Below are positions 9,024-53,948 of a stretch of DNA of 61,902 nt, piece after piece. The number at the start of each line of letters is the position of its first letter. Position 1 is the stretch's first letter. The stretch covers positions 1 through 61,902 of the forward strand of contig JANMMM010000039.1 in assembly GCA_031373225.1 (NCBI GenBank), read 5' to 3'. The DNA is from Phyllobacteriaceae bacterium (GTDB lineage: Bacteria; Pseudomonadota; Alphaproteobacteria; Rhizobiales; Rhizobiaceae). The translations under genes were made by a program, and so were the position numbers. The notes beneath the pieces are model-generated. The model worked only from the letters and a program-made list of their open reading frames with translations, was not told where the DNA came from and searched no databases.

Positions 9024-10073
9024 ATGAAACTTTTGAAAATCACCATGACGGGCATGTTGGCCGCATCAGCTTTTGTGTCGGCAGCACATGCCGCCCGCGA
9101 CCAGATCCGCATCGTCGGCTCGTCCACAGTTTATCCGTTCACCACAGCAGTTGCCGAAGAGTTCGGCAAATCCTCCGGCATGAAGACGCCGGTCGTCGAA
9201 TCCACCGGCACCGGTGGCGGCATGAAATTGTTCTGCGCGGGCGTCGGCGAAGAGCATCCTGATTTCACAAACGCCTCGCGCCAAATCAAAAAGAGCGAGT
9301 TTGAAGACTGCGCGAAGAATGGCGTGACCGATATTGTTGAGATCAAGGTCGGCTTTGACGGCCTGTCGCTTGCACAGTCCAAGGACGCCGGCGGCTTTGC
9401 GCAGACCAAGCAGCAGGTTTTCCAGGCGCTGGCCAAGGAAGTTCCCGGCGCGGACGGCAAGCTTGTCGCCAACCCTTATAAGACTTGGGCCGACATTGAC
9501 CCGTCCCTGCCTGCCACCAAGATCGAAGTTCTCGGACCGCCGCCGACATCCGGCACCCGCGATTCGTTTGTCGAGCTGGTGATGGAAGTTGGCGCGGCCA
9601 AGTTCGAAACGCTCGCCGCCCTGAAAAAGGACGACGCCAAGGCGTTTGAAAAGGTCTGGAAGTCGATCCGCGAGGACGGCGCCTATGTGGAAGCTGGCGA
9701 GAATGACAATCTCATCGTGCAGAAGCTCGAAGCCAACAAGGATGCGGTCGGCATTTTCGGCTTCTCCTTCCTCGAAGAGAATGCCTCGATGATCAAGGGC
9801 CTCACGATGGACGGCGTTGCCCCGTCTTACGAGACCATCGCTTCAGGCGACTACAAAGTCTCCCGTCCGCTCTATGTGTACGCCAAGAAGGCGCATGTCG
9901 GCGTCATTCCGGGTATGGCCGAGTTTGTCGCCGAATATGTCTCCGACAAGGCCATCGGTGAAGACGGTTATCTGTCGGACAAGGGCCTGATCACGCTTCC
10001 TGGCGAAGACGCCAAGATGACCGCCGCTTCTGCTGTGGCGATGGAAGTCCTGAAGGGCGACGCGTTGAAGTAA
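9024..10073 (+). CDS. pstS: phosphate ABC transporter substrate-binding protein
   Basis: It has a signal peptide and a PBP-like motif (RIVGSSTVYPF). It is the first gene of the pstSCAB cluster. Confidence 0.9.
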   Translation: MKLLKITMTGMLAASAFVSAAHAARDQIRIVGSSTVYPFTTAVAEEFGKSSGMKTPVVESTGTGGGMKLFCAGVGEEHPDFTNASRQIKKSEFEDCAKNGVTDIVEIKVGFDGLSLAQSKDAGGFAQTKQQVFQALAKEVPGADGKLVANPYKTWADIDPSLPATKIEVLGPPPTSGTRDSFVELVMEVGAAKFETLAALKKDDAKAFEKVWKSIREDGAYVEAGENDNLIVQKLEANKDAVGIFGFSFLEENASMIKGLTMDGVAPSYETIASGDYKVSRPLYVYAKKAHVGVIPGMAEFVAEYVSDKAIGEDGYLSDKGLITLPGEDAKMTAASAVAMEVLKGDALK

Positions 10074-10083
10074 GCCGCCTTTC

Positions 10084-10120
10084 GCGCAGGGCGGTCTCGG
10101 ATGTACAGGCCGCCCTGCGC
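10084..10120 (+). terminator. intercistronic stem-loop (11-bp perfect stem) between pstS and pstC; possible attenuator
   Basis: The stem is gcgcagggcgg (10084..10094) paired with ccgccctgcgc (10110..10120). No T-tract follows, so it is more likely an mRNA-stabilising or attenuating hairpin than a full terminator. Confidence 0.4.
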
Positions 10121-10171
10121 AAATTCGTTCGCCAATTGATTGTTTCTCGCTTTTGAGTCTAAAGGCCTTTC

Positions 10172-11335
10172 ATGTCGCTGATCTTTGCCTTGCTCATTTT
10201 ACTGATGGTTTCAGGCTCCTTCGTTCTTGGCCGCAGCCGCGCCGGCGCGCTTCAGTCTTCGGCCGGACTTCACTCGCTGCCTTCCTATCATGGCATGCTG
10301 CTGGCGCTTGTGGGCCTGCTTGCCGCGCTTCTGGTCTTTGCGCTGGGGCTGCGCTTTATTCCGGACTATATTCCATGGGTTTCGCTCGCTGCCGGTTTTG
10401 CAGCCGTTGGGGTGTTTTATCAGAAAATCTCTCCTGATTACCGCGCGCGGAACCTGTTTGAGCGAATTACCCTTTGGATACTTGCCGCCTGCGCCACGTT
10501 CGCCATTCTGGTGACAATCGGCATTTTGTTCTCGGTTCTGTTCGAGTCTCTGCGCTTCTTCAGTGAAGTCTCGCCGCTGCATTTTCTGACCAGTCTGCAA
10601 TGGTCGCCAACTTCCGATCCCGCCTCGTTCGGCATTGTGCCGCTGGTCGCAGGAACCTTGCTCATCACAGTTATCGCCATCGCGATCGCCGGCCCTCTCG
10701 GCCTTTTCGGCGCGATCTACATGGCCGAATATGCCTCGCCGCGAATCCGCAGCATCGCCAAACCGCTTCTGGAAATTCTGGCTGGCGTGCCCACCGTTGT
10801 GCTCGGTTTCTTCGCCGCGCTCACAGTCGCGCCGCTGATAAGGGGCTGGGGCGAAAGTTTTGGCCTTTCAGTGTCATCTGAGTCGGCGCTCGCGGCAGGC
10901 GTGGTCATGGGCATGATGATCGTGCCGCTGATCTCCTCCCTGTCGGATGACATCATCAACGCCGTGCCGCAGTCGCTGCGCGACGGGTCTTATGCGATGG
11001 GCGCGACGAAATCCGAGACGATCAAGAAGGTCGTGCTGCCTGCGGCGCTGCCAGGCATTGTCTCCGCCTTTATCCTCGCCATTTCGCGCGCCATCGGCGA
11101 GACGATGATTGTGGTGATGGCCGCCGGCCTTGCCGCCAATCTGACGTTTAATCCGCTGGCTGCCGTGACGACCATCACCGTGCAAATCGCGACGCTCCTT
11201 GTCGGCGACCAGGAGTTTGATTCCGCCAAGACGCTGTCCGCTTTCGCGCTCGGCCTCATCCTCTTCATCTTCACCCTTGTCCTCAACTATATCGCACTGC
11301 GCTTCGTGCAGAAATACCGGGAGCAATATGACTGA
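10172..11335 (+). CDS. pstC: phosphate ABC transporter permease
   Basis: It is a multi-TM protein with an ABC permease EAA-like loop (SRAIGETMIV) and lies between pstS and pstA. Confidence 0.88.
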   Translation: MSLIFALLILLMVSGSFVLGRSRAGALQSSAGLHSLPSYHGMLLALVGLLAALLVFALGLRFIPDYIPWVSLAAGFAAVGVFYQKISPDYRARNLFERITLWILAACATFAILVTIGILFSVLFESLRFFSEVSPLHFLTSLQWSPTSDPASFGIVPLVAGTLLITVIAIAIAGPLGLFGAIYMAEYASPRIRSIAKPLLEILAGVPTVVLGFFAALTVAPLIRGWGESFGLSVSSESALAAGVVMGMMIVPLISSLSDDIINAVPQSLRDGSYAMGATKSETIKKVVLPAALPGIVSAFILAISRAIGETMIVVMAAGLAANLTFNPLAAVTTITVQIATLLVGDQEFDSAKTLSAFALGLILFIFTLVLNYIALRFVQKYREQYD

Positions 11336-12812
11336 GTTCACGATGAAAGGCGGCGCCGAGCTCGTCGCCAAACGCTACCGCGCTGAACGCCGGTTCAAAG
11401 CGCTGGGACTGGCTTCACTTGCGGTAACCGGCCTGTTTCTTGGCTTCCTGATTGTTGACATTATGACGAAGGGCTTCCCGGCCTTTTTCGAACACACAGT
11501 CAAAATGGACGTGATGATCGACCCAGCCAGGATCGACGCGAACGCAATCGCCAAGGGCGACTTTCAGGGCCTTGCCAAGGATGCGCTGCGCGACGCTTTC
11601 CCGGGCGTCAGCGACCGAAGCGGCAGGAAGCAGCTGTCCGCAATTCTTTCCTCTGGCGCTGGCAGCGCGCTGCGGGACTTGGTCATTGCAGATCCAAAGC
11701 TGATTGGGACGAAAGTCAATGTCCCGCTGCTTCTGTCGGGTGACGCAGACCTTTATCTCAAGGGTTATCAGGCCAACCTCGGCAAAAATCCGGGTTCTGC
11801 GGACCTGACCATTTCGGAAGACGGAGACGCTTACAATTTGACCACAAGCGCGCCCTTGGCCGCGGGCCAAATCGTGCGCGCCAATGGCGGGGCGTTCAAG
11901 GTGTTGAGCGCGGGCGATGGCTCAGCAAGGGCGGAAGCCATGGAAAAGCCGGTCAGCATGGAAACAGCGCTAGCGGGAAAATGGGACAGCGTCTCTTTCA
12001 GCACCACCGAGTCCGACCGCCGTTCGTCGGATCGCGAAATTCTCTGGCTCGAGCAGCTGAATGACAATGGCCAGATAGCCAAAGGATTTGCCTGGCGATT
12101 CTTTTCATCAGGCGATTCGCGTGAGCCGGAACTTGCCGGCGTACGCGGCGCGCTGGTTGGCTCACTGCTTGTGATCGCCGTAACGCTTTCCATCTGCCTG
12201 CCCATAGGCGTGGGAGCGGCGCTCTATCTTGAGGAGTTCGCGTCGAAGAACCGTTTCACTGATCTGATCGAAGTCAACATCAACAACCTCGCCGCGGTGC
12301 CCTCCATCATTTTCGGCCTGCTCGGTCTTGCGGTTTTCCTGTCTTTCTTCGGGCTGCCGCGCTCGGCGCCTTTGGTCGGCGGTCTGGTGCTGGCGCTGCT
12401 TGTGCTGCCGACGATCATCATCGCCTCCCGCGCCGCCTTCCGTTCGGTGCCGCCTTCCATCAAGGAAGCGGCGCTCGGCGTCGGCGCGTCGCATCAGCAG
12501 GCGGTGTTCCACCATGTGCTTCCACTCGCCGTTCCCGGCATTCTGACCGGCACAATTTTAGGCATCGCCCGGGCCTTCGGAGAATCCGCGCCTCTCCTTA
12601 TGATTGGCATGATCGCCTTCATCGTCGATGTGCCGAAGGGCTTCACGGATGCGGCAACCGTCATGCCGGTGCAGATTTTCCTTTGGTCCGATCTTCCCGA
12701 GATCGGGTTCCAGTCTAAGACCGCCGCAGCCATCATCGTGCTGCTCGTTGTCCTGTTTTGCTTGAACGCTGTCGCAATTTACTTGCGCAAGCGCTTCGAA
12801 CGCCGTTGGTAG
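11328..12812 (+). CDS. pstA: phosphate ABC transporter permease
   Basis: ATG 11328 overlaps the pstC stop (11333..11335). The long N-terminal periplasmic loop is typical of rhizobial PstA. It has a permease core with [10 protein letters not shown]. Confidence 0.88.
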
Positions 12813-12829
12813 TTGAAAGAGAGTCCGCC

Positions 12830-13681
12830 ATGGATGCCATGACAAAAAGAGGGGCTTCAAACGTGAAGACCAAAACCGTTGAAACCCCAATGAAGACGGA
12901 ATTGCCTGCAAAGGCCGCAATGCCCGCGATAAAAATCAAGGCGCGCAATGTCGATGTCCACTATGGCGAAAAGCAGGCCATCAAAGACCTGTCGATCGAC
13001 ATCCCGGCGCGCTCGGTCTCTTCTTTCATCGGCCCTTCGGGCTGCGGCAAGTCGACGTTTCTGCGTTCCATCAACCGGATGAACGACACGATCCCCACCT
13101 GCAAGGTCAAGGGGCTGATCGAAATCGACGGCAAGGACATCTATGACAAGGATCTCGACGTGGTGCAGCTGCGCGCCAATGTCGGCATGGTGTTTCAGAA
13201 GCCCAATCCGTTTCCGAAATCCATCTTCGAAAATGTCGCCTATGGCCCGCGCATACATGGCCTTGCCAAGGGAAAAACCGATCTTGAGGAAATGGTCGTG
13301 TCAGCACTAAAGAAGGCCGGCCTCTTCGAAGAGGTCAAAGACCGGATCAGCCAGCCGGGGACCAGCCTGTCCGGCGGCCAGCAGCAGCGGCTGTGCATCG
13401 CCCGCGCCATAGCGGTGAACCCTGAAATCATCCTGATGGACGAACCCTGTTCTGCGCTCGATCCGATCGCCACCGCCAGGATCGAAGAGCTGATTGACGA
13501 ATTGCGCGAGAATTTCACCATCGTCATCGTCACCCATTCGATGCAGCAGGCGGCGCGCGTCTCGCAGCGCACGGCCATGTTCCACCTTGGCATCCTGGTC
13601 GAGGAGGGGCCGACCGAGCTGATGTTCTCCAATCCCACCCAGAAGCGCACTCAGGACTACATCACCGGCCGCTTCGGCTGA
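12830..13681 (+). CDS. pstB: phosphate ABC transporter ATP-binding protein
   Basis: It has Walker A (GPSGCGKST), the ABC signature (LSGGQQQR) and Walker B (ILMDEP). The start is set at ATG 12830. Confidence 0.95.
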
Positions 13682-13703
13682 TCATTTGCAAAGGAACCGA
13701 GCG

Positions 13704-14420
13704 ATGCTCGCACAACATACCGTCCGCTCCTACGATGAAGAGCTGAAATATCTGGCGCAGAAGATCGCCGAAATGGGCGGCCACGGCGAGCGCATGGTGG
13801 ACCAGTCCATCAAAGCGCTGGTCGAGGCGGATAACAAGCTTGCCAAGCAGGTGGTGCTTGATGACCAGTTCATGGACGACACACAGCGTGAAATCGACGA
13901 GAAGGCGATCATGATAATCGCCAAGCGTCAGCCCATGGCGTCGGACCTACGCGAAATCATCGGCGCGATCCGCATTTCCGCTGATCTTGAGCGGGTTGGC
14001 GACATGGGCAAGAACATCGCCAAGCGTAACTCCGCTGTCTCTGAAACCGCGCATCCGCTACGGGTGTTCCGGGGTCTTGAAAATCTGGCGCAGCTGGGGC
14101 TGACCCAGCTGAAAGACGTGCTTGACATCTATGCGTCACGCTCCGTTGACCAGCTCGACCGGGTGCGAAACAGGGATGAGGAGATTGATCAGGTCTACAC
14201 CTCGCTGTTCCGCGAGCTTCTGACCTATATGATGGAGGACCCGCGCAACATTTCCTCCTGCACGCATCTCCTGTTCTGCGCCAAAAACATCGAGCGCATC
14301 GGCGACCATGCGACCAACATTGCCGAGACGATCTATTACATTGAGACAGGCCGGCATATGACGCTCGACCGGCCCAAGGAAGACAAAAGCCACCGCGTTG
14401 TGCTTGAGGAGCCGAAGTGA
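13704..14420 (+). CDS. phoU: phosphate signalling complex protein PhoU
   Basis: It shows two PhoU repeats with E/DxxxD motifs (ADLERVGD, NIERIGDH) and lies between pstB and phoB. Confidence 0.92.
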   Translation: MLAQHTVRSYDEELKYLAQKIAEMGGHGERMVDQSIKALVEADNKLAKQVVLDDQFMDDTQREIDEKAIMIIAKRQPMASDLREIIGAIRISADLERVGDMGKNIAKRNSAVSETAHPLRVFRGLENLAQLGLTQLKDVLDIYASRSVDQLDRVRNRDEEIDQVYTSLFRELLTYMMEDPRNISSCTHLLFCAKNIERIGDHATNIAETIYYIETGRHMTLDRPKEDKSHRVVLEEPK

Positions 14421-14422
14421 GA

Positions 14423-15115
14423 ATGGCGATCAGTCCGCGCATTGCCGTCATTGAGGACGAAGAGGCGCTGAGCATTCTGCTGCGCTATAATCTGGAGGCC
14501 GAGGGCTGGCAGGTCTCGACGATCCTGCGCGGCGATGAGGCGGAGGAGGCACTTCGCCACCAGCCGCCTGACCTCATCATTCTCGACTGGATGCTGCCAG
14601 GTGTGTCGGGCATCGAGCTGTGCCGGCGCTTGCGCAACAAGACCGAAACCAGCCGCGTCCCCATCATCATGCTCACGGCGCGCGGCGAAGAAAGCGAGCG
14701 CGTGCGCGGACTTGCGACGGGAGCGGACGATTATGTGGTCAAGCCCTTTTCAACGCCGGAGCTGATGGCACGTGTCAAAGCGCTGTTGCGCCGCGCAAAG
14801 CCGGAGGTCATCGCTTCTCAGCTGAAAGTCGCCGAGATCGAGCTTGACCGCGACGCACACCGCGTCCGCCGCGGTGCGAGAGAGTTGAAACTCGGTCCGA
14901 CTGAATTCCGGCTGTTGGAATTCCTGATGCGGGCCCCTGGCAGGGTGTTCTCCCGCGCCCAGCTTCTGGACGGTGTCTGGGGCGAAAACATCTATGTCGA
15001 TGACCGCACGGTGGACGTCCATGTCGGACGCTTGCGCAAGGCCGTCAACCGAGGCAAGGAGGCTGACCCAATCCGCACCGTGCGCGGCGCCGGCTACTCA
15101 ATTGAGCACCCGTAG
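14423..15115 (+). CDS. phoB: phosphate regulon response regulator (OmpR family)
   Basis: It has a receiver domain (IAVIEDE, LIILDWMLPG, KPF) and an OmpR-type winged-helix C-terminus (TVDVHVGRLRK, RTVRGAGY). Confidence 0.92.
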   Translation: MAISPRIAVIEDEEALSILLRYNLEAEGWQVSTILRGDEAEEALRHQPPDLIILDWMLPGVSGIELCRRLRNKTETSRVPIIMLTARGEESERVRGLATGADDYVVKPFSTPELMARVKALLRRAKPEVIASQLKVAEIELDRDAHRVRRGARELKLGPTEFRLLEFLMRAPGRVFSRAQLLDGVWGENIYVDDRTVDVHVGRLRKAVNRGKEADPIRTVRGAGYSIEHP

Positions 15116-15183: not shown

Positions 15184-16218
15184 TTACGCCGCCTTCAGCT
15201 TCGGCTTTATCAACCCCCGCGCCACCAGCAGCTCGGCAATCTGCACCGCGTTCAGCGCCGCGCCTTTGCGCAGATTGTCCGAGACGATCCACATGGCAAG
15301 CCCGTTCTCCACCGTGATATCCTCGCGGATGCGGGAAATGTAGGTGGCGTCTTCGCCGGCGCTTTCGACCGGGGTCGCGTAGCCGCCGTCCTCATGACGG
15401 TCGATGACCAGGCACCCCGGAGCGTTCTCGAGCAGCGCCCGCGCCTCTTCCGGCGAGATCGGCTTTTCGAATTCGATGTTCACCGCCTCGGAATGGCCGA
15501 TGAACACCGGCACGCGCACGCAGGTCGCCGTCAGCTTGATTTTCGGATCGAGCATCTTCTTGGTCTCGGCGACCATCTTCCACTCTTCCTTGGTGTAGCC
15601 ATCCTCCATGAACACATCGATATGCGGGATGACATTGAAGGCAATGCGCTTGGTGAACTTCTTGGTGACGACCGGATCGGCGACAAACACGGCGCGGGTT
15701 TGCGTGAACAATTCGTCCATGCCTTCCTTGCCCGCGCCCGACACCGACTGATAGGTCGAGACGACAACGCGCTTGATAATTGCGGCATCATGCAAGGGCT
15801 TCAACGCCACGACCAATTGGGCGGTCGAGCAGTTTGGATTTGCGATGATGTTGCGCTTCGTAAAACCGGTAATCGCGTCCGGGTTCACTTCCGGCACGAT
15901 CAGCGGCACGTTGGAATCGTAGCGGAAGGCCGACGAGTTATCGATGACGACACAGCCCTGCGCCGCAATCTTCGGCGACCAGATCTTTGAGGTCTCACCG
16001 CCCGCCGACATCAGGCAGATGTCGGTGTCGGAGAAATCAAACTGGTCAAGCACTTTGACCTTCAGCGTCCGGTCCCCGTAAGAAACCTCGGTGCCGAGCG
16101 AGCGCCTTGACGCCAACGCCACAACCTCGTCGGCCGGAAAGCCGCGCTCTTCCAGAATGTTCAGCATCTCACGCCCGACATTTCCCGTCGCCCCGGCGAT
16201 TGCCACCTTGAAACCCAT
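15184..16218 (-). CDS. asd: aspartate-semialdehyde dehydrogenase
   Basis: It has the N-terminus MGFKVAIAGATGNVG and the active-site region IANPNCSTAQ. The length is 344 aa. Confidence 0.95.
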   Translation of the reverse strand: MGFKVAIAGATGNVGREMLNILEERGFPADEVVALASRRSLGTEVSYGDRTLKVKVLDQFDFSDTDICLMSAGGETSKIWSPKIAAQGCVVIDNSSAFRYDSNVPLIVPEVNPDAITGFTKRNIIANPNCSTAQLVVALKPLHDAAIIKRVVVSTYQSVSGAGKEGMDELFTQTRAVFVADPVVTKKFTKRIAFNVIPHIDVFMEDGYTKEEWKMVAETKKMLDPKIKLTATCVRVPVFIGHSEAVNIEFEKPISPEEARALLENAPGCLVIDRHEDGGYATPVESAGEDATYISRIREDITVENGLAMWIVSDNLRKGAALNAVQIAELLVARGLIKPKLKAA

Positions 16219-16539
16219 TGTCTTAAATCCTTTTGCCGCTCCCCGCCCAAACCCGTCACTCAGACGTGATTTTCACTCACCCCGCCAGCCCGGGGGAGTG
16301 TCGGGAAGGCTGAGGCGGTCAATCCTGTTTGGTGGTTTTTTTTGATGTGGTTTTAGCGGAGAAAAGGCGGGCATGGCTGCGGGCGGGGCCCGAAGCGGAC
16401 AGCTCGACAATGGCTTGGCGGAAGCCGCGCATGGTTTTTCCTTTTCTGAGCGGTGCTCATACTGGAAATTGGATAAGAGTCAAACCGCCTAAAGGAAAAC
16501 CAGGTAGCCAACGATGGACAAGTCGCCCCAACTGCTTCC

Positions 16540-18807
16540 TCAGCGACCCCACACAGTGCTGTAGCGCTCCAAAACGTTGACAAAGTCAGCCTCACCTGCA
16601 GGGGTAATTGTTCTAGCGCCGATGCTAACTGGCGCGTGTATAAGTGAATACAATTCCCTCGATACCTCCTCCCTAATTGACTCGATGAGCCTAAAGGGTC
16701 CGGAGGCCAGAAAGATATTTGCTAACTCCATATATCTCCCCTTCTTAACATTCACCGCACTCAAACTTTTTTTAACTTGACTCTCCTGACGGAAATTTAC
16801 CTCATTTAATATCCTGACGCTCGAAACAGAATTCACAAATTTCGCTGTGATCCAGTTGATCAAATTCAAGTCTCCGGGCTCGTAAGACTCAATCATTACG
16901 AAAGGAGCAACCTTCTCCAAATTACCCTCAACAACAAATGGTCCGATTGGCGCCCTCATCAAAGCCAAAGATAAGTACGCGATGTCTTTTACATACTTAT
17001 CGAGAATATAAACCAATTTCGGCAGCGGTCTAACTCTCATCCTCATGAGCTCTCGATCAAATTGAAAATACTCTCCGTACAGTGAAATAACATCACTCTC
17101 AGCAAGTTCAATAATTTTCCATCTCAGAATTTCTTCATTGTAACCAAAGAGTCTCCACAAAATATAGCAAATTTCTGCAACACTGACTGGCTGGTAATTC
17201 TTAATCACCTCTCTCTTTGCCTCTATTGCCCTAACCAGTTGTATTATACGCAACGTCAGCGCTATTTCATTTCCAGTATTTACAAATTTCCCACCAAACG
17301 CACTATCATCATACGGATAATCAAATATAGAGGGAATCAATCTGTTGTCAAACAGAGGAATATCGGCAATTCTTTGGGTAAATTTTCCGGCATTCGTGCT
17401 ATAATAATAATACTTCTGCGGATACTTAAATCCTCCTTTCGTCATTGACTCCACAATTTTGTAGGGTGCCAAGACCCCCACTTGCTTTCTCACGCTCATA
17501 ATGTAGTCGTAATACGCCAGTTGAATTGTCTGCATTTGGGCTCGCCTGTTGGGCCCAAAGGCCCTGTGAAGCGCAGCAGCATAATGCTCACTCGTTTCAG
17601 AACGCTCTAAGAACTCCACGAACCCGTCAAAGTGGAGAGGCCAGTCGCTCGTCATCCACTTTTTGCTGGGCGCAAGTCTGGCCACCTCGCTAATTAAAAA
17701 CGCTCTCCTCTGGCTTACAATTTCAACGAGGTCAGATGGTCCGATTTCAAACGTTCGAACAGACTCAACTTTCTTATAGGGGCTTGTTCGTGAAAAACTT
17801 TCTAACGTTGAAGTTCTCATTACTGCGAGCAAGACAAACCCAACCAAGTCAGTGCTGAGGCCGAGAGAAGCGGAGTCACCACAAAGCTTCTCAAATTTTC
17901 GGATTGCTGAACGTGTTGACTCAAGTTTATCAAATCCATCTAAAACAACTACAAACCGAAAGCCCTTGAGCAAAAGGTAAGAATATACTGCCGCGCCTAT
18001 AACCCTAGGAACTAGCCTCTCGTCAAGAGGTTGCTCAGCAGTTTTTCTCCAGAATACATTTTTCATATTCTCGAGAGTATTTGTAAGATTTAGACGAGCT
18101 TCTTGAGATTCCATCCGACTTACATAATCTCGTAAATATTGATCAAGTCCACGTTTTGCTATATCAATATTGGATATCCTATACAATCTTGATTTAGAAT
18201 GGTAATATCTATAAACAATTTTAGAAATTTGTGCGTAAATCCAAGAAAGCAGATCGTTATTTGGAGGAAAGTCTTTGACTAAGTCTAATCGTACCCATAT
18301 AACTGACTGTCTGTCGAGTTTATCGATATATTGCGCCAAAATATAGTTTAAGAAAAAAGTTTTTCCAGAGCCACGGGGACCGTGAACAATAAATGTCCGC
18401 TGAGAAAGATGATTTAAATCAGCACCCCCCTTTGCAGTTTGCTTCGAAAGCTGCCATTGAAAATTCGCTTCTGTAACTACTTGGTCAACAAAAGTGTCAA
18501 CAGCCTTTGAACTGCGATTCACAAAATTTTCTGAATCGGCTTGTTCTTCGATTGCGCGATTAGAAGAAAAAACATAGCTATCCTTAATTGCACTTGTATT
18601 TTCTGGATCACTAGGATTTGAGGTTATGTGCCCAAGCCTCTTTTGCACATGATCCTCCCGTGGCTCTATGTGGTGCGGCCTAAAACTCAATTCATTTCTA
18701 AAGGGATGGCGCGCCACAGGGTCGGATCGATCCGAGCTTAATTTCGTCAGCATGTCACTGTGCTTCATTGGAGACTTCAGCAGCGAGTCTATTTCGGCCT
18801 TATTCAT
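16540..18807 (-). CDS. large P-loop NTPase (755 aa) with ORC/Cdc6-like AAA+ or STAND-like architecture; function unknown
   Basis: Walker A is VHGPRGSGKT (nt 18358..18381, aa 143-150). Walker B is FVVVLDGFD (aa 285-293). A sensor-like LLAVMRTS motif and a lid-like VRTFEIGPSDLVEIVSQRR motif are present. There is a winged-helix-like segment (VSVAEICYILWRLFGYNEEILRWKIIELAESDVISL). The polar N-terminal ~140 aa and the C-terminal ~170 aa match no family I recognise. Confidence 0.8.
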   Translation of the reverse strand: MNKAEIDSLLKSPMKHSDMLTKLSSDRSDPVARHPFRNELSFRPHHIEPREDHVQKRLGHITSNPSDPENTSAIKDSYVFSSNRAIEEQADSENFVNRSSKAVDTFVDQVVTEANFQWQLSKQTAKGGADLNHLSQRTFIVHGPRGSGKTFFLNYILAQYIDKLDRQSVIWVRLDLVKDFPPNNDLLSWIYAQISKIVYRYYHSKSRLYRISNIDIAKRGLDQYLRDYVSRMESQEARLNLTNTLENMKNVFWRKTAEQPLDERLVPRVIGAAVYSYLLLKGFRFVVVLDGFDKLESTRSAIRKFEKLCGDSASLGLSTDLVGFVLLAVMRTSTLESFSRTSPYKKVESVRTFEIGPSDLVEIVSQRRAFLISEVARLAPSKKWMTSDWPLHFDGFVEFLERSETSEHYAAALHRAFGPNRRAQMQTIQLAYYDYIMSVRKQVGVLAPYKIVESMTKGGFKYPQKYYYYSTNAGKFTQRIADIPLFDNRLIPSIFDYPYDDSAFGGKFVNTGNEIALTLRIIQLVRAIEAKREVIKNYQPVSVAEICYILWRLFGYNEEILRWKIIELAESDVISLYGEYFQFDRELMRMRVRPLPKLVYILDKYVKDIAYLSLALMRAPIGPFVVEGNLEKVAPFVMIESYEPGDLNLINWITAKFVNSVSSVRILNEVNFRQESQVKKSLSAVNVKKGRYMELANIFLASGPFRLIESIREEVSRELYSLIHAPVSIGARTITPAGEADFVNVLERYSTVWGR

Positions 18808-19435
18808 CGACGCTCCAATCTTTGAGTAGTGACTTTAACTGACTTAATGCTGTAGCGACAGTGAAGGGACCTTCAATCAGAGACAACTCAAGGTTTTTTT
18901 CAATCAAACTGACTAATTTGCTGAGTGTCACTGGTAGGCAGGGTAATCCAATCGAAGAACCTCCATTCTTCATTGGCAAAACACGTTGATTTTTGAATTT
19001 CATCGGAATTTTTGATGTCTCGATACCCGGAATGTAAACACAGGGGAGTTCAATTTGTTCTTCGGCTCTTACAGCGCGTATTACGGGTTCTCCCACAATT
19101 ACGCTTAAAGACTTAAAAATCTCACCGTGTGCGAATGCGCCTCTAGGGATAAAATCTTTGTCAATCAAAATATCTTGCGCTTCTCTTATGCATTGGAAGT
19201 AGGTGGAGAAGGTATCACTGTCGTATTTTTCAGATTCAAAACAAGTTATAAAAATACTATCAGATAAGACTTGAACTACGAAATTGTTTTTTTTGGTAAT
19301 TTTCTCTATTTCATGAACGCAGTCAGCGAGGTCTTTATATATTTTGGCAGCGCCTCTGGATCTTACCAATGCGCTGAATCCATATATGTCGATGTAGACG
19401 AGCCAGGCATTGCCCTTTTGCATTTGATTGGACAT
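18800..19435 (-). CDS. minimal class III nucleotidyl cyclase-like (cyclase homology domain / Palm fold) protein, 211 aa
   Basis: By eye it aligns to CHD motifs. LVYIDIYGFSAL aligns with FxDIxGFT (metal Asp D16). QVLSDSIFITCF aligns with the GDxxxA strand (D59). PRGAFAHGEIF aligns with RIGIHTG. GEPVIRAVRAEE aligns with G..VNxAxR (Arg123 kept, Asn replaced by Ile119). Its stop codon overlaps the downstream gene's start. Confidence 0.7.
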   Translation of the reverse strand: MSNQMQKGNAWLVYIDIYGFSALVRSRGAAKIYKDLADCVHEIEKITKKNNFVVQVLSDSIFITCFESEKYDSDTFSTYFQCIREAQDILIDKDFIPRGAFAHGEIFKSLSVIVGEPVIRAVRAEEQIELPCVYIPGIETSKIPMKFKNQRVLPMKNGGSSIGLPCLPVTLSKLVSLIEKNLELSLIEGPFTVATALSQLKSLLKDWSVDE

Positions 19436-19494
19436 TGGTTCCTTGCATCCCCTCCGAGGTGTCAGCCCCTTATTTTTTGATATATTTTTTGCTT

Positions 19495-19523
19495 ATCTTC
19501 GGCACGATTTTGTATTCCGTCAA
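19495..19523 (-). promoter_or_regulatory. possible sigma70-type promoter for the island operon
   Basis: On the minus strand there is TTGACG (19523..19518), a 17-nt spacer, then GAAGAT (19500..19495). An AAGGA Shine-Dalgarno sits a few nt before ATG 19435. This is a weak sequence match only. Confidence 0.25.
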
Positions 19524-19748: not shown

Positions 19749-21641
19749 ATGGCAGACGCAGTAATGGCGGGCGCACCAACCCGCGGCATGACGAGAGAGG
19801 AAAAGAAGGTCATCTTCGCCTCCTCGCTCGGCACCGTTTTCGAATGGTACGATTTTTATCTGTACGGATCACTCGCCGCCTTCATCGGCGCGGCGTTTTT
19901 CTCGCAATATCCGGAAGCCACGCGCAACATTTTCGCACTGCTGGCGTTTGCCGCCGGCTTCCTCGTGCGCCCGTTCGGCGCGCTGGTGTTCGGCCGGCTC
20001 GGCGATCTGGTCGGCCGCAAATACACATTCCTCATCACCATCGTCATTATGGGCCTGTCAACATTCCTGGTCGGTCTCCTGCCCGGCTCGGCGACCATCG
20101 GCATTCTGGCGCCCATTATCCTGATCGGCCTGCGCATGCTGCAGGGTCTGGCGCTCGGCGGTGAATATGGCGGCGCGGCGACCTATGTCGCCGAGCATTC
20201 GCCTCCCGGCAAGCGCGGCTATTACACCTCGTTCATTCAAACCACGGCGACGCTCGGCCTGTTCCTGTCTCTGGTCATTATCCTCGCGCTGCAAACCAAT
20301 ATGAGCAAAGAAGCGTTCGCCGACTATGGCTGGCGCATTCCGTTCCTGCTTTCCGCCATACTGCTCGGCGTGTCCGTCTGGATTCGTCTGCAGATGAATG
20401 AATCGCCGGTGTTCCAGCAGATCAAGGATGAGGGCAAACAGTCAAAAGCGCCGCTGTCGGAAGCCTTCGGCCAGTGGAAAAATGCCAAGATCGCCATTCT
20501 GGCTTTGCTGGGCGCGACTGCCGGTCAGGCGGTGGTCTGGTACACCGGCCAGTTCTACGCCCTGTTCTTCCTGACGAACGTGCTGAAGGTGGACGGCGCT
20601 TCGGTAAACAAAATGGTGGCGGTTTCGCTTCTGCTCGGCACCGGGTTCTTCATTGTGTTTGGCTGGCTCTCGGATAAAATCGGCCGCAAGCCGATCATCA
20701 TGGCGGGTCTCGCTTTGGCGATCCTGACTTACTTCCCGCTGTTCAAAATGCTGACGGAAGCCGCCAATCCGGCGCTTGCAACGGCACAGGCAAGCTCAAT
20801 CGCAACTGTGACAGCAGACCCCAAGGATTGTAACTTCCAGTTTAATCCGACCGGCACGAAGAAGTTCACCACGTCATGCGATATCGCCACGGCCTTCCTG
20901 ACCCGCAACTCGGTGCCTTACAAGCTCGTGGACGGCGCAGCGGGCTCTGTTGCTTCCATTGATCTCGGCGGCGTCAAGGTCGAGTCCTATGACGCGGTCA
21001 AGGCTGGCGACAAGGCGGCGGGCATGAAGGGCGCGTTTGAAAAGAGCGTCAATCTCGCCATGCAGACCGGCGGCTATCCGCTGGTGCGCGATGCGGTCAA
21101 GGTCACTGGCTCCAAGCTTGCGGCGCTGGTTGCTGCAAATCCGGAAGCCAAACTCGACCAGGCGGCGATTGAAGCTGGTGAAAAGACCATGACCAAGGTT
21201 GCCGACGCTGTGACAGCCAAGCTGCTCACCGCTGACGAGGCCAAGGCGATCACCGACGCCGAAGTGCCGGTCTATTCCGTCAAAGGCGCCGGCGCGTTCA
21301 AGATGGTGGCCGACGCCGCAGCGGTGAACTGGACCAGGATCATCGCGATCCTGACCCTGCTCGTCATCTACGTGACCATGGTCTACGGCCCGATCGCCGC
21401 ATGGCTCGTGGAAATGTTCCCGACCCGCATCCGCTACACCGGCATGTCGCTGCCTTACCACATCGGCAACGGCTGGTTCGGCGGCCTGCTCCCGGCGACG
21501 GTCTTCGCCATGAGCGCGGCCAAGGGCGACATCTACTACGGCCTCTGGTACCCGATCATCATCGCCGCGACGACGCTCGTCATTGGCATCCTGTTCGTCA
21601 AGGACAACAAAAAGGATCATCTGCTAAAAGACATGGATTGA
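19749..21641 (+). CDS. MFS transporter, metabolite:H+ symporter (MHS/ProP-like) family, with a large extra loop domain
   Basis: The N-terminus is FEWYDFYLYGSLA, with FGRLGDLVGRK and EMFPTRIRYTG motifs. It has 12 predicted TM segments. A ~190-aa hydrophilic insert (aa ~336-528) sits between TM9 and TM10. Confidence 0.85.
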   Translation: MADAVMAGAPTRGMTREEKKVIFASSLGTVFEWYDFYLYGSLAAFIGAAFFSQYPEATRNIFALLAFAAGFLVRPFGALVFGRLGDLVGRKYTFLITIVIMGLSTFLVGLLPGSATIGILAPIILIGLRMLQGLALGGEYGGAATYVAEHSPPGKRGYYTSFIQTTATLGLFLSLVIILALQTNMSKEAFADYGWRIPFLLSAILLGVSVWIRLQMNESPVFQQIKDEGKQSKAPLSEAFGQWKNAKIAILALLGATAGQAVVWYTGQFYALFFLTNVLKVDGASVNKMVAVSLLLGTGFFIVFGWLSDKIGRKPIIMAGLALAILTYFPLFKMLTEAANPALATAQASSIATVTADPKDCNFQFNPTGTKKFTTSCDIATAFLTRNSVPYKLVDGAAGSVASIDLGGVKVESYDAVKAGDKAAGMKGAFEKSVNLAMQTGGYPLVRDAVKVTGSKLAALVAANPEAKLDQAAIEAGEKTMTKVADAVTAKLLTADEAKAITDAEVPVYSVKGAGAFKMVADAAAVNWTRIIAILTLLVIYVTMVYGPIAAWLVEMFPTRIRYTGMSLPYHIGNGWFGGLLPATVFAMSAAKGDIYYGLWYPIIIAATTLVIGILFVKDNKKDHLLKDMD

Positions 21642-22445: not shown

Positions 22446-23558
22446 TCAAGCCCCCAGCCGCTTGAACGCGTCCAATATCGCCGTGCCCATCTCAACCGTC
22501 GTCACCAGCCGCATCCCGTCCGACATGATGTCGCCGGTGCGCAGGCCCGCGTTCAGCACTTCCGAGATCGCCGCCTCCAGCCTGTCGGCCTCGCTGACCA
22601 TGTTGAACGAATAGCGCAGGCTCATGGCGAAGGACGCGATCATGGCGATCGGGTTGGCGATGCCCCTGCCCGCAATGTCCGGCGCCGAGCCGTGCACCGG
22701 CTCGTACAGCGCCTTGCGCTTGCCGGTCATCGCATCCGGCGCGCCGAGCGAGGCGGAGGGCAGCATGCCGAGCGAACCGGTCAGCATCGCCGCCACGTCC
22801 GACAGCATGTCGCCGAACAGATTGTCGGTGACGATCACGTCAAACTGCTTGGGCCAGCGCACCAGCTGCATGCCGCCGGCGTCCGCCAGCATATGGTCGA
22901 GCTTCACGTCCGGATATTTGGCGGCGTGCGTGGCGGTGACCACTTCGTTCCAGAGCACGCCCGATTTCATCACGTTGCGCTTTTCCATCGACGTGACGCG
23001 GTTATTGCGCGTGCGCGCCATGTCAAAGGCGACGCAGGCGATGCGCTCGATCTCAAACGTGTCATAGACCTGCGTGTCGATGCCGCGCTTCTGGCCGTTG
23101 CCAAGATCGATGATTTCCTTCGGCGAACCGAAATAGACGCCGCCGGTCAGTTCGCGCACGATCAGAATGTCGAGCCCTTCGACCACTTCCGGCTTGAGCG
23201 ACGAGGAGGCGGCGAGCGCAGGATAGCAGATTGCCGGACGCAGATTGGCGAACAGCTCCATGTCCTTGCGAAGCCGCAGAAGCCCGGCTTCAGGGCGCGC
23301 ATCGTAGGGAACCTTGTCCCATTTCGGCCCGCCCACTGCGCCGAACAGCACCGCATTCGCCGCCATGGCCTTTGCCATGTCGCCTTCCGAAATCGCCGCG
23401 CCATGCGCATCATAAGCGCAGCCGCCGACCAGACCTTCGTCCACCAGAAAGCCTGCTTGCCTAGCCTCATTCATATGGGAGATGATATGGCGGACTTCCG
23501 CCATGGCCTCAGGACCGATTCCGTCGCCAGGAAGCAGGAAGAGCGAACGATTTGTCAT
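22446..23558 (-). CDS. leuB: 3-isopropylmalate dehydrogenase
   Basis: The N-terminus is [10 protein letters not shown], with the NLFGDMLSD motif. The length is 370 aa. Confidence 0.95.
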
Positions 23559-23631
23559 GGGTGCGAACTCATAAGCTGGAAAACAAGATGGCCGAGCGTC
23601 TATGGGCTGACCGGGAAAAATGCAATCGCTC

Positions 23632-24516
23632 TCAGCCGCCCTTCAGTCTGCGGCAAAGCTCGTCGAGCTGCTCCAGATCACGGTAGCGGACCGACAGCGC
23701 GCCGCCGCCGCCCGAATGATTGATCGTCACCTTCATGCCGAGGTGATCCGAAATCAGCTTTTCCAGCGCCGTGGTGTCCACGTCTTTCGGCGCTGCGCCC
23801 TTCATGGATTTGGTTTCAGGCGCCGGTGGATTTAAGGTCTCCTGCGCCATCTGCTCAGCCTGCCGCACCGAAAGACCGCCGGCAACAATTTTCAAGGCCA
23901 GCGAAAGCGGGTCATCCACCGCAATCAGCGCGCGCGCGTGGCCTGCAGACAGCTGGTTATTAATGAGCATGTCGCGGACTTTTTCCGGCAGCTTCAAAAG
24001 CCGCAAAGTATTCGCGACATGGCTGCGGCTCTTGCCGATTATGCCGGCGAGATCAAGTTGCGTGTAAGAATGTTCGTCGACTAATTGTTGGTAGCCAACC
24101 GCCTCCTCAATAGCGTTGAGATCGGCGCGCTGCACGTTTTCGACAATGGCGATTTCCAGCGCCGCGCGGTCGTCAATGTTCCTCACAATGACAGGAATCT
24201 CTGTCAAACCCGCTATTTGCGCCGCCCGCCATCGCCGTTCGCCCGCGACGATTTCATAATGATCAGCGGTTTCCGGCTTTTTCCGCACGATAATCGGCTG
24301 AACAATGCCGTGGGTGCGGATGGACTGCGACAGGTCCACTAACTCGGCTTCGGAAAAGTTGCGGCGCGGATTGCGCGGATTGCGCGCAATATGCTCAATC
24401 GCCACCCTTCTGTCGGCGGATACCGGCGACGCCGCGGCCTGCGCAGGCTTGTCCATTTCACCGATCAGCGCCGCGAGGCCCCGCCCCAGCCGCTTGCGTG
24501 AAGGATCATCAATCAT
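23632..24516 (-). CDS. parB: chromosome partitioning protein ParB
   Basis: It has the ParB box ([25 protein letters not shown]) and an HTH, and lies downstream of parA. Confidence 0.95.
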
Positions 24517-47567: not shown

Positions 47568-48128
47568 ATGAGCCTCCACATGGAAATGCCTGCGACGCCG
47601 GAAGAATTCCTCGTCTGGAACGAGGGACGCGAAGGCAAGCGTGAGTTCGCTTATGGGGAAGTTGTCGAGCAGGAACGCGACACGACACGGACCCAAGCCC
47701 GGCTAAAGACGAAATTGCTGTTCGCACTTGCTGAATCTCTCGACCGAAACAAATATGACGTGAGTGGGTTCGGTTTTGCCATTCAGACAGTTGCCGGCGT
47801 GCGGTTTCCCGATTTGATCGTGGAAATGAAAACGCCGGAGGCGAAGGGCAGCGATGTCAAAGCAATCCATCCAGTCATGCTCGCTGAAGTGCCATCACCT
47901 TCATCTTATGTGCGGGATTTCGGCGAAAAAGTTGATGAATACAAGCAGCTGATAACGCTCAGGCACTATCTCGTGCTGTCGGAGGATGAGCCGTGCGTAT
48001 GGCTTTGGAGCCGCGATGGCGAAGCGTGGCGCGGGCCGGAAATGATCTCATCACTTAACGGACAGCTTGACCTCGTAGGCTTGGGCGCATGTATTAACCT
48101 CGCCGCACTTTATCGCAGCATCGAATGA
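47568..48128 (+). CDS. Uma2 (DUF820) family putative endonuclease
   Basis: It is 186 aa with the Uma2 pattern: PDLIVE, a conserved E-x-S (LAEVPSPSS) and K..EY (KVDEYKQL). Confidence 0.7.
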   Translation: MSLHMEMPATPEEFLVWNEGREGKREFAYGEVVEQERDTTRTQARLKTKLLFALAESLDRNKYDVSGFGFAIQTVAGVRFPDLIVEMKTPEAKGSDVKAIHPVMLAEVPSPSSYVRDFGEKVDEYKQLITLRHYLVLSEDEPCVWLWSRDGEAWRGPEMISSLNGQLDLVGLGACINLAALYRSIE

Positions 48129-48206
48129 CGCTTGAGGCATCCGATCCTGTATTGATGACCTCATCGTTGCCGCCGATTTTGATCGTCCAGTAGGAGACGC
48201 TGAAGA

Positions 48207-49196
48207 ATGAACACTTGGATGGTCCGCGCAGGCAGCGGCGGTGTCTTCTTTGAGATATTCAAAGACAGGCGCATGGCCGGATTGGGATGGCGCAATGTTG
48301 GCGATCTGTCTTCATTTTCGACGCGGGAGAAATTAGCTCAAGCAATTCGTCAAGGATATCCCGACTACTCGTCCCAAGCCGTCTCGATGAACACTGGGCA
48401 GTTGTTTCGCTTCGCAAATGATATCAAAATCGGCGACCGCGTCGTGACATATGATCCCGGCGCGCGGGTTTATCTCTGCGGTGTGGTTGATGGCGCCTAT
48501 CACTATTCTCCGCAGGAAGCGGAAGAGGAACTCATAAATCAAAGACCCGTTAAATGGCTTCATGAGACGCCAAGAGACAAGCTTTCGAGCGCCGCGAGAA
48601 ATTCTCTTGGTTCTATTGCGACACTTTTTGCAATTTCAGCTGAAGTGGCTGGGGAGTTGTGGGGTGAGTCAAGGATTGAACGAAAGCCTGAAGCGGTAGC
48701 CGACGGCCCTGAATTGGCCGCCGAAACTGCTGCTTCAGCACAGGGCAAAAGCAGAGAACTCATTAAGGATCGCATCGCAGCGCTCGACTGGGAAGAAATG
48801 CAGGAACTCGTGGCGGGGCTGCTGCGGGCAATGGGCTACAAGACAACGATTTCACCGCGTGGACCTGATCGAGGCATCGACATTATGGCTTCGCCAGATC
48901 GATTTGGCTTCGAGGAACCTAGAATCGTTGTTGAGGTCAAGCATCGAAAAGACCAACGAATGGGCGCATCGGAAGTTCGCAGCTTTCTTGGTGGAAGGCA
49001 TCTAAAGGACAAAGGCTTGTATGTCAGCACGGGCGGATTTTCCCAGGAAGCGCGATACGAGGCTGAGCGCGCAAGCATTCCGCTCACGCTCATGGATTTT
49101 GAAATGCTCGTAAATGCGATATTGGAGCATTATTCCGCCTTTGACGAGGAAACCAAGCGGCTCTTGCCGCTGCAACTGCTTTATTGGCCAGCATGA
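48207..49196 (+). CDS. Mrr-type (PD-(D/E)xK) restriction endonuclease with an uncharacterised N-terminal domain
   Basis: It has a C-terminal Mrr_cat-like core ([33 protein letters not shown]). The N-terminal ~150 aa (WMVRAGSGG...GLGW...IKIGDRVV...LCGVV) looks like a PUA/EVE-like beta-barrel pattern. Its stop overlaps the hisF ATG (ATGA at 49193..49196). Confidence 0.75.
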
Positions 49197-52397: not shown

Positions 52398-52573
52398 GGC
52401 TTCTCGTTGGCTGACCGCTGCCGGTTAGACGAAAAAGATTAAATAAGGGATTCGGATCAGTGCGGGACGGCTGTTTTTGATTGCCGCCGCAATTTCATTT
52501 TGATCCGCCCGCCGGTTCCTCACCCTTCCGCGTGAAGCGGCCTTCCAAGACCCGTTCAGACCATACGGCGTTT

Positions 52574-52714
52574 GCCATTGCCGAAAACCACTGGACCTAG
52601 ATAAATCTAAAGAATTTGCGGGAAAACATCGCCCCGGCCCGTCCGCGCGTGCGCCTCATCCTGCGCAAGGGCGATAATCATCTGGTTGAAGAAGCGGCGC
52701 TCACTAAGCTGTGA
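52574..52714 (+). pseudogene. duplicated 3' fragment of coaA (47 codons) with an in-frame TAG
   Basis: It translates as [45 protein letters not shown]. The coaA C-terminus is [46 protein letters not shown]. That is 36/46 identical at the same length as 51151..51291, with TAG at 52598..52600 replacing Lys. Confidence 0.85.
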
Positions 52715-53840: not shown

Positions 53841-53948
53841 GGATTACCCAGAGCCGCAAACGGCCCGCGCTGGACGATGCTTTCAGCCCGGAGAAAACAA
53901 TTTTTAAAGCTTTCGCTCTATGCGTTCTGACATGAAGGGATTTCCAGA

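Follow-up and report, generated by a model that had tools for sequence, protein, structure and literature searches.

What is the role of a large P-loop NTPase that is encoded with a single small partner in an isolated patch of AT-rich DNA, and on what does it act? This question is raised by a 61,902-nt stretch of the genome of a Phyllobacteriaceae bacterium (contig JANMMM010000039.1; hereafter the window), in which a gene for a 755-aa NTPase (16540..18807, minus strand) lies directly downstream of a gene for a 211-aa divergent protein with a class III cyclase homology domain (18800..19435, minus strand) in the same operon. A preliminary description of the NTPase had proposed an AAA+/ORC-like or STAND-like core flanked by unassignable termini, and had considered the small partner as a possible effector. 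We find that the NTPase is an unannotated lineage of the ORC/Cdc6-STAND branch of P-loop NTPases with intact catalytic motifs, and that it is linked, in translation and in inheritance, to a minimal class III cyclase-like enzyme. The cassette is most likely a self-contained, horizontally mobile two-gene conflict module directed against phages. In the reading that we favour, to which we give a probability of roughly 0.45, the ATPase would be a sensor or switch that activates its partner, and the partner would convert or deplete nucleotides to stop infection.

Catalytic motifs of the NTPase

The open reading frame (ORF) at 16540..18807 encodes 755 aa as previously reported, and its assignment rests on the ORF list, the family search, an AlphaFold2 model and fold matches. 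Conservation was assessed in 112 diverse homologues with 19-45% identity to the window NTPase. Six residues are invariant (G146, G148, K149, D290, D293 and R422), and at least 90% conservation is found at G143, T150, G291, R331, R367, N420 and the R200-Y201-Y202 triplet, as well as at R520, Q523, K597, W652, K656 and N659. The Walker A motif GPRGSGKT (aa 143-150; 18358..18381, minus strand) follows the GxxxxGK[ST] pattern of P-loop NTPases. The longer form VHGPRGSGKT does lie at aa 141-150 as first described, but the nucleotides then quoted, 18358..18381, correspond to aa 143-150 only, and the decapeptide extends over 18358..18387. The Walker B motif FVVVLDGFD was correctly placed at aa 285-293 (17929..17955, minus strand); it is a hydrophobic strand ending in Asp with a catalytic acidic residue nearby, and aligns with IFILDEFD of ORC4. 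The preliminary description had singled it out as a DGxD variant. The motif is indeed of the hhhhDGxD type, but this is not an oddity, DGxD being the NACHT-type form of Walker B. Both features that define this type, hhhhDGxD(E) and an Arg beyond strand beta4, are present (D290, G291, D293 and R331). Walker A and Walker B are both conserved throughout the 112 homologues, the reverse of what had been named as a possible refutation.

Two further segments had been likened to sensor and lid motifs; like the Walker motifs, they are too well conserved to be chance matches. The end of strand beta4, LLAVMRTS (aa 326-333; 17809..17832, minus strand; model strand 324-331), carries R331 at the sensor-1 position, and strand beta5 with the first lid helix, VRTFEIGPSDLVEIVSQRR (aa 350-368; 17704..17760, minus strand; model strand 350-354 and helix 360-382), carries R367. 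The best-conserved lid motif, N420-x-R422, had been overlooked; it corresponds to NRRAQMQ (aa 420-426; 17530..17550, minus strand) at the start of helix 421-440. Its invariant R422, within NxRAxxQ, is a candidate sensor 2 judging from the alignment and the model. A box VII Arg finger is not apparent: besides R331, no residue of aa 332-349, between beta4 and beta5, is conserved in at least 90% of the 112 sequences.

Domain organization and classification

The AlphaFold2 model computed from the 112-sequence alignment has a mean predicted local distance difference test score (pLDDT) of 90.1 and a predicted template modelling score of 0.91; an earlier model built from 7 sequences (model 1) had a pLDDT of 68. 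The predicted structure starts with an ordered N-terminal extension (aa 1-99) and a long helix (100-126). The P-loop domain follows, with strands at 138-143, 169-175, 284-290, 324-331 and 350-354 and, inserted between the second and third of them, helices at 186-201, 221-230 and 235-253. The lid is helical (360-457) and is succeeded by a beta-hairpin (467-480), the winged helix (about 513-595) and a helical C-terminal domain (596-755). A winged helix had been suspected at residues 540-580 or thereabouts, and the model places it at aa 543-594 (17026..17181, minus strand) with an H-H-beta-H-beta order, the first two helices being at 543-554 and 558-570 and the wing strands at 574-577 and 591-594; a weak co-linear profile alignment with the ORC4 winged helix points the same way.

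In a Foldseek search of the PDB, this model was closest to ORC4 (E = 1.7e-4), then to McrB, Cdc6, Orc1, NLRP14 and Apaf-1, all of them distant (TMq <= 0.27); ORC4, Cdc6 and Orc1 were aligned over 480-600 columns. The fold search with model 1 gave Apaf-1, ORC4, CED-4, RdrA and MalT, and BFVD gave generic AAA+ matches only. The family profile retrieved ORC4 (E = 9e-4), with three co-linear matches, at Walker A, from Walker B to the lid and in the winged helix, as well as mS29/DAP3 with an E-value near 0.01, and single-sequence phmmer searches of the PDB gave nothing for either the NTPase or the partner. Weak Pfam matches among 62 family members were to AAA_16 (48), AAA_22 (35), NACHT (28), nSTAND3 (7) and ORC-CDC6-like (7), with best member E-values of 2.1e-7 for AAA_16 and 1.5e-6 for NACHT. 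The NCBIfam matches in the same 62 members were to the Sll1717 family (42), orc1/cdc6 (6) and RdrA (2), those to orc1/cdc6 (TIGR02928) being weak, with a best E-value of 1.6e-5, and below the cutoff of the curated model.

The window NTPase itself passes no curated Pfam or NCBIfam cutoff, scoring 18.1 against a gathering score of 26.7 for NACHT, 19.3 against 32.6 for AAA_16, and 16.4 bits against a cutoff of 27 for the ORC-CDC6-like family PF24389. A housekeeping ATPase identity was therefore rejected, and the searches assigned the protein to no well-characterised housekeeping family, an outcome that would have spoken against the preliminary description. A transmembrane (TM) NTPase was also rejected, the single TM-like stretch (aa 312-330) ending in strand beta4 of the nucleotide-binding domain (NBD).

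The arrangement characteristic of ORC/Cdc6 proteins, an NBD with an alpha-helical lid and a C-terminal winged helix, is found in the model, in the Foldseek matches and in the profile segments. The motifs are mixed. With motif definitions taken from general knowledge, the DGxD Walker B, the sensor-1 Arg and the lack of a box VII Arg are STAND-like, and the lid Arg in NxRAxxQ is ORC/Cdc6-like. To our knowledge, an AAA+-style lid Arg such as R422 is lacking in canonical STANDs. The layout that had been described as ORC-like or STAND-like thus has its nearest folds in ORC4, Cdc6/Orc1, McrB, NLRP and Apaf-1 and its nearest profiles in ORC4 and mS29/DAP3. This double label is accurate, because STANDs are themselves placed within the Cdc6/Orc clade (PMC8195603). 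The NTPase is accordingly described as a fixed core of NBD, lid and winged helix with N- and C-terminal domains that are specific to the family.

Terminal domains and family size

The N-terminal region (aa 1-135; 18403..18807, minus strand) is polar, ordered (pLDDT mostly >85) and family-specific. The first 140 aa had been described as polar and low-complexity. They are polar, with 34% S/D/E/N, but they are not low-complexity, because their entropy (4.05 bits) equals that of the other domains, the model is confident there and the RLGHxxxNP motif is conserved. This motif (aa 57-65), together with Y78 and N97, stands out in the region; as RLGHITSNPS (aa 57-66) it spans 18610..18639 of the minus strand, with L58, H60 and P65 conserved in at least 90% of homologues. 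The C-terminal helical domain (aa 596-755; 16543..17022, minus strand) includes the conserved K597, W652, K656 and N659. Separate profiles of the two regions (aa 1-135 and 596-755) have no homologue in the PDB or Pfam, the C-terminal one hitting only designed helical bundles at E >= 0.04. The termini therefore stay unassignable as first described, and the further domain that had been placed from about residue 585 onwards corresponds to aa 596-755.

The label "sensor-like" given to that domain is not supported, since its variability does not exceed that of the rest outside the core and its length is fixed. Pairwise identity is 30% in the NBD core, 22-25% in the other domains and 18% in the linker helix (aa 100-135), and domain lengths are tightly fixed, the C-terminal domain having 160 aa with a standard deviation of 7 aa. 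A hypervariable C-terminal sensor was rejected on this flat domain-wise conservation and these fixed lengths. No repeats or effector domains were found in the NTPase by Pfam searches of the members or by the terminal profiles, and no nuclease, protease, TIR or pore-forming feature was detectable by Pfam and a TM scan.

When 1.84 billion cluster representatives were scanned exhaustively with the family profile (HMMER), 553 were returned at E <= 1e-3, of which 186 at E <= 1e-30. A word-indexed homology search had retrieved no more than 7 NTPase relatives and 8 partner relatives, and the extreme rarity that it suggested is overturned by these 553 representatives. The best 150 of them are mostly full-length proteins of 720-840 aa, the remainder being shorter fragments; none exceeds 840 aa or carries a fused effector, and in none is the N-terminus extended far enough to accommodate a fused domain, in line with the lack of a visible effector noted earlier. 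The family diverges fast, with a mean pairwise identity of about 27%. Two weak matches to PHROG profiles were seen, one of the NBD to phrog_14719 (1.2e-6, positions 287-519 of 833) and one of the partner to phrog_23933 (1.4e-6), both families of unknown function.

A minimal cyclase-like partner

Single partner sequences stay below the Pfam threshold (Guanylate_cyc E >= 0.1). A profile built from 29 homologues matched the beta subunit of soluble guanylate cyclase in the PDB (3et6, E = 6.5e-8, positions 7-180 of 225) and Rv1625c (1yk9, E = 3.5e-6), and all 18 PDB matches below E = 0.05 were class III cyclase chains aligned over the whole catalytic domain. The equivalent of the first metal-binding Asp is Asp16, in YIDIYGFS (19388..19390, minus strand), which is present in 29/29 homologues and aligns with the Asp of FxDIxGFT in 3et6 and 1yk9. 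That of the second, placed by alignment, is Asp59 (19259..19261, minus strand; 29/29), with SDS in place of GDx. Arg98-Gly99, in PRGA/lRGG (19139..19144, minus strand), occupies the place of the cyclase RxGxHxG motif (R98 in 28/29, G99 in 29/29), and E125 is conserved in 28/29. The residues that stabilize the transition state in cyclases are not retained in the same way: the position of the Asn (119) is I, V or L in 26/29 partners, and that of the Arg (123) is R or K in only 17/29. All detected homologues are stand-alone proteins of 211-256 aa, with a mean pairwise identity of about 25% among 22 of them, and the partner has no match in PADLOC-DB v2.0.0. Its sequence is that of a minimal and divergent enzyme of the cyclase fold, in which the two-metal site has been kept but the chemistry would be non-canonical.

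The missing Asn and the partly conserved Arg could also be those of a pseudo-enzyme, or of a nucleotide-binding regulatory or adaptor subunit, with the NTPase alone sensing and executing through its terminal domains. Those domains are conserved yet unassignable, and conflict systems are on record in which the cyclic nucleotide cyclase domain is inactive (PMC7159879, section 13). Set against this, the pair of metal-ligand Asp, R98, G99 and E125 are kept in 28-29 of 29 sequences despite about 25% identity, which is typical of a retained active site, and the NTPase offers no detectable nuclease, protease, TIR or pore-forming feature with which it might execute. We consider an inactive partner unlikely.

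Gene coupling and distribution

In the window, the partner stop and the NTPase start overlap by 8 nt (18800..18807, minus strand), as expected for translational coupling. The same order, with the partner gene immediately before that of the NTPase, occurs at 33 loci distributed over at least three phyla; 32 of them were verified with both profile hidden Markov models, and the remaining one (L048) was accepted on the size and position of its genes. Among the hosts are Hyphomicrobiaceae, Rhizobium, Gaiellaceae (Actinomycetota), Desulfobulbaceae and Desulfatibacillum. The two genes overlap or are at most 4 nt apart in 22 of 23 junctions compared, 7 of which are 4-nt overlaps of the ATGA type, and the largest gap is 18 nt. 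Distance matrices of NTPase and partner are correlated over 22 pairs (mirror-tree r = 0.853, Mantel p <= 2e-4). No third gene is conserved with the pair in the compared neighbourhoods, and a fusion of the two was never seen among the best 150 NTPase representatives or the detected partner homologues.

Island and genomic context

The two genes alone make up a low-GC island (16340..19500; about 32-50% GC against about 60% in the flanks) of about 3.2 kb, inserted between asd and a transporter gene in a chromosome of about 60% GC. According to the ORF list of the window the pair is alone among housekeeping genes. The island holds no integrase, repeats or other mobile genes beside the two genes, and an Rfam scan of it found nothing. 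An imperfect 20-nt direct repeat, TTTTTTGATGTGGTTTTAGC (16338-16357) and TTTTTTGATATATTTTTTGC (19473-19492), 80% identical, brackets the island almost exactly and could be an insertion remnant or due to chance. A perfect 14-nt inverted repeat, CGGTGCCGAGCGAG (16089-16102) and CTCGCTCGGCACCG (19823-19836), lies within the flanking asd and transporter ORFs and is probably a chance occurrence in GC-rich DNA.

Other loci are richer in conflict genes. The pair closest to that of the window (45% identity), on a JGI metagenome contig, is directly preceded by a complete QatABCD system (L001:1718-6742). Neighbours elsewhere include Abi_C, PD-(D/E)XK, HD-CE, a serine recombinase and TrwB, as well as Replic_Relax, HicAB and a BamHI-type restriction-modification system, and further several type II methyltransferases and restriction enzymes, PDC-S04, PDC-M19, PDC-M48B and a dCTPase; resolvases and relaxases lie near some of the pairs. 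The low-GC island and these neighbours (restriction-modification, QatABCD, PDC candidates, Abi, resolvases and relaxases) agree with the conflict-system setting that had been suggested from the window.

The relaxase, TrwB and Replic_Relax genes near some loci, together with ORC4 and Cdc6/Orc1 as best fold and profile matches, would also suit a replication or maintenance module of mobile elements, composed of an ORC/Cdc6-like initiator and a small palm-domain polymerase or primase, the cyclase fold being a palm domain. We regard this as highly improbable. The partner profile matches exclusively class III cyclases, and the distant relatives of the NTPase described below pair with TM proteins. 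The island of the window and locus L048, where the pair likewise stands alone, hold two genes only, with no integrase, repeats or other mobile genes. Moreover, relatives were found neither by tblastn in 50,697 phage and 72,556 plasmid records nor in IMG/VR.

A physiological cAMP/cGMP or transcription module is a further alternative, namely a split version of an adenylate cyclase-ATPase-HTH regulator (Rv0386/MalT/AfsR-like) whose winged helix would sit on promoters. Fusions of cyclase, ATPase and LuxR domains exist in mycobacteria, AAA_16 is the most frequent Pfam match (48/62), MalT is among the fold matches, a winged helix is present and some loci lie among housekeeping genes. The low GC of the island, the patchy spread across phyla with fast divergence, and neighbours from restriction-modification, Qat, Abi and mobile elements are difficult to reconcile with such a role, and no TPR or LuxR module was found by Pfam. 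The loss of canonical cyclase residues and the pairing of a distant clade with small TM proteins also count against it, and it appears improbable.

Relatives without a cyclase

A distant NTPase subclade lacks the cyclase gene (L009, L015, L017, L038 and L040-L047). In five of its loci, a small protein of 133-175 aa with a C-terminal TM helix is encoded just downstream of the NTPase (L017:10049-10471, L041:4221-4748, L043:4244-4696, L045:4901-5302 and L046:4005-4448). Homology among these small proteins is detectable, with E = 1.5e-9 between L043 and L046 and E = 1e-5 between L017 and L046. In L009, L040, L042 and L047, TM proteins are instead encoded upstream of the NTPase. The LGHxxxNP motif is present in 17/23 cyclase-linked NTPases vs 2/11 cyclase-less ones, and these two are the nearest ones. 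The NTPases of L015 and L038 have the motif, as LGHIAANP, although they are cyclase-less. In both loci, a convergent gene downstream encodes a soluble protein of 147-155 aa (L015:3492-3935 and L038:8332-8799, minus strand; 50% identical, E = 2e-49).

The cyclase-less NTPase and its small TM protein may represent a sister system that relies on a membrane effector. Keeping the NTPase constant while exchanging the small partner would be, by analogy, the pattern of sensor/effector shuffling seen in defence systems. This constancy of the NTPase and variability of the small partner favour the cyclase-like protein as the output, and the earlier suggestion that the partner might be the effector gains support from the TM proteins that take the cyclase's place.

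The same loci bear on the opposite direction of signalling, which would follow a Pycsar-like logic: the mini-cyclase would be the infection sensor producing a cyclic nucleotide, and the NTPase both receptor and effector. It would bind the signal through its N- or C-terminal domain and would then act either by runaway ATP hydrolysis or by clamping DNA with its winged helix in an ORC-like manner and so blocking replication. This agrees with the cyclase-first, two-gene order known from Pycsar/Pucsar operons (bioRxiv 10.64898/2026.08.12.744502, section 5; PMC13069673), with the conserved metal site of the cyclase, with an ORC/Cdc6-like core bearing a winged helix, and with two conserved NTPase domains of unknown function that could bind a ligand. 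The relatives that keep the NTPase and swap the cyclase for TM proteins are more easily explained if the NTPase is the constant sensor and the partner the variable output. The cyclase also lacks the canonical Asn/Arg pair, the NTPase has no cyclic nucleoside monophosphate (cNMP)-binding, TIR or TM domain by Pfam and TM scan, and no Pycsar model was matched in PADLOC. We consider this reversed order of events rather unlikely.

Proposed function

In the favoured reading, with the NTPase as sensor and switch, the NTPase would sense an infection cue, which might be a nucleic acid or another conserved feature. Such a cue is suggested by the conserved, non-hypervariable architecture, by the winged helix, and by the helical insert with its RYY triplet at the position of the initiator-specific motif. 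On sensing, the NTPase would change its nucleotide state, oligomerise, or both, and thereby activate the bound cyclase-like partner, which would turn nucleoside triphosphates (NTPs) into a cyclic or otherwise modified nucleotide, or merely deplete them. The infected cell would be arrested, and the cyclase-like protein would be the "missing effector". This reading has precedents, as there are conflict systems under NTPase control in which cNMP cyclase domains take the effector or signalling position (PMC7159879, PMC8195603), and an immune cyclase clade fused to STAND NTPases has been described as uncharacterised (bioRxiv 10.64898/2026.08.12.744502, section 5).

Several observations weigh against it. 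Some loci, including those of the window and L048, lie among housekeeping genes with no other defence gene nearby. The NTPase matches PADLOC-DB v2.0.0 only at the level of the P-loop (mad8, 0.0018; PDC-M16A, 0.0023) and the partner does not match it at all. We know of no phage-defence phenotype for the cassette, and the case for every step of the proposed mechanism is made from sequence and predicted structure. No cNMP-binding domain is detectable by Pfam in either protein, and a cyclase without a receptor has no clear route to acting as a terminal effector. Canonical cyclase chemistry is itself doubtful, given that the Asn is replaced in 26/29 partners and the Arg position is basic in only 17/29. 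Furthermore, the NTPase has no hypervariable domain such as the one that serves as sensor in many Avs/NLR proteins, and part of the mirror-tree correlation may be due to shared phylogeny.

A bolder version of the proposal, which we put forward as speculation and consider unlikely to hold in full, would make the cassette a new class of abortive infection. The ORC-like ATPase would use its winged helix and initiator-type insert to recognise some conserved feature of DNA that invades or replicates, and would switch on a "half-site" mini-cyclase whose missing transition-state residues would be supplied in trans by the N-terminal RLGHxxxNP element of the NTPase. The outcome would be either a non-canonical nucleotide or a catastrophic depletion of NTPs, and no receptor protein would be needed in addition.

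Comparison with known systems

Compared with Orc1, Orc4 and Cdc6, the NTPase has its best fold and profile matches among these proteins and the same domain order (NBD, lid, winged helix). Its helical insertion between beta2 and beta3 is at the place of the initiator-specific motif, the beta5/lid motif xFxxxxxxELxxIxxxR is common to both, and the invariant Arg of the lid helix is at the putative sensor-2 place. It differs in that the matches reach only about 1e-4 with TMq <= 0.27, and that the curated models are not passed. Walker B is DGxD rather than DExD, an Arg replaces the Asn/Thr at sensor 1, and no box VII Arg finger is conserved. The NTPase also has some 135 extra N-terminal and 160 extra C-terminal residues, and is found in a mobile two-gene cassette with a cyclase rather than at a replication origin.

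With the STANDs (NACHT, NB-ARC/AP-ATPase and AAA_16/MalT-like proteins, including Avs and bNACHT) it shares the hhhhDGxD Walker B, the Arg after beta4 and the succession of NBD, helical domain and winged helix. Members match NACHT (28/62), AAA_16 (48/62), nSTAND3, NB-ARC and DAP3 weakly, the fold matches include Apaf-1, CED-4, NLRP and MalT, and some loci are in defence islands. Unlike STANDs, it lacks TPR, LRR or WD40 repeats, a hypervariable sensor and, in the best 150 of 553 representatives, a fused N-terminal effector, and the window protein remains below every Pfam gathering score. The best curated match is NCBIfam NF047389, the Sll1717-family P-loop ATPase (aa 134-367, E = 1.4e-8; 42/62 members), but it covers only the NBD, with 34.3 bits against a cutoff of 75, and the Sll1717 family is itself uncharacterised.

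Links between cyclases and STANDs are known computationally, mainly as fusions with NACHT or AP-ATPase (bioRxiv 10.64898/2026.08.12.744502, section 5). Like the cassette, the "immune clade 1" fusions (bioRxiv 10.64898/2026.08.12.744502; PMC7159879, PMC8195603) couple a class III cyclase to a STAND-type NTPase in a predicted immune context, and are likewise experimentally uncharacterised. Here, by contrast, two separate genes overlap and no fusion of them was seen, the cyclase, at about 210 aa, is a minimal one without the Asn/Arg pair, and the NTPase belongs to a distinct unannotated family that is neither NACHT nor AP-ATPase, a comparison made by description and not by accession. Pycsar and Pucsar resemble the cassette as mobile, defence-associated two-gene operons led by a stand-alone class III-type cyclase. 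Their second gene differs from the one described here, which has no cNMP-binding, TIR or genuine TM segment; no PADLOC Pycsar model was matched, and the cyclase here is far more divergent (Guanylate_cyc E >= 0.1).

RADAR, in turn, combines a large ORC/STAND-related ATPase (RdrA) with an enzyme acting on free nucleotides, the adenosine deaminase RdrB, and RdrA is among the weak fold and profile matches of the NTPase. There is no family-level homology, as the RdrA model is touched by 2/62 members only (E about 0.0025), and the partner here is cyclase-fold and not a deaminase. With the mechanism of RADAR taken from general knowledge, the resemblance is one of design only.

The NTPase has no Pfam, NCBIfam or PADLOC assignment and no solved structure among its relatives. 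PADLOC v2 does not include the split pair, in which an Asn-less mini-cyclase accompanies an NTPase of a distinct family, and our literature searches turned up no account of it. Should the cassette prove to be a defence system, it would be a compact and widely transferable two-gene module, in which an ORC/Cdc6-like switch is wired directly to a minimal cyclase-fold enzyme, an unusual design with no recognisable receptor or killing domain. It would make testable how nucleotide-converting enzymes act as terminal immune outputs, as in RADAR, and how the ancestral ORC/Cdc6-STAND scaffold was adapted for immunity. Even a basic phenotype, or the structure of the complex, would allow hundreds of "hypothetical" gene pairs (553 clusters) to be annotated, and would also give an experimental ground to the cyclase-STAND association, which is so far computational only.

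Other features of the window

The flanks at 11199-15115 and 22446-24516 have the look of core chromosome, with PstA/PstB-like phosphate transport proteins, PhoU, a PhoB-type response regulator, Asd, LeuB and a ParB-like protein, all named by eye from the translations. No tRNA genes were found in the whole window. A strong negative AT skew (-0.337) is observed at 10001-11000, in a single 1-kb bin upstream of the pst-type transporter genes. Finally, the GC content also drops at 48001-49000 and 52001-55000 (0.52-0.54 against about 0.60), and these segments could be other acquired regions; AT-skew swings are strong at 53-55 kb.

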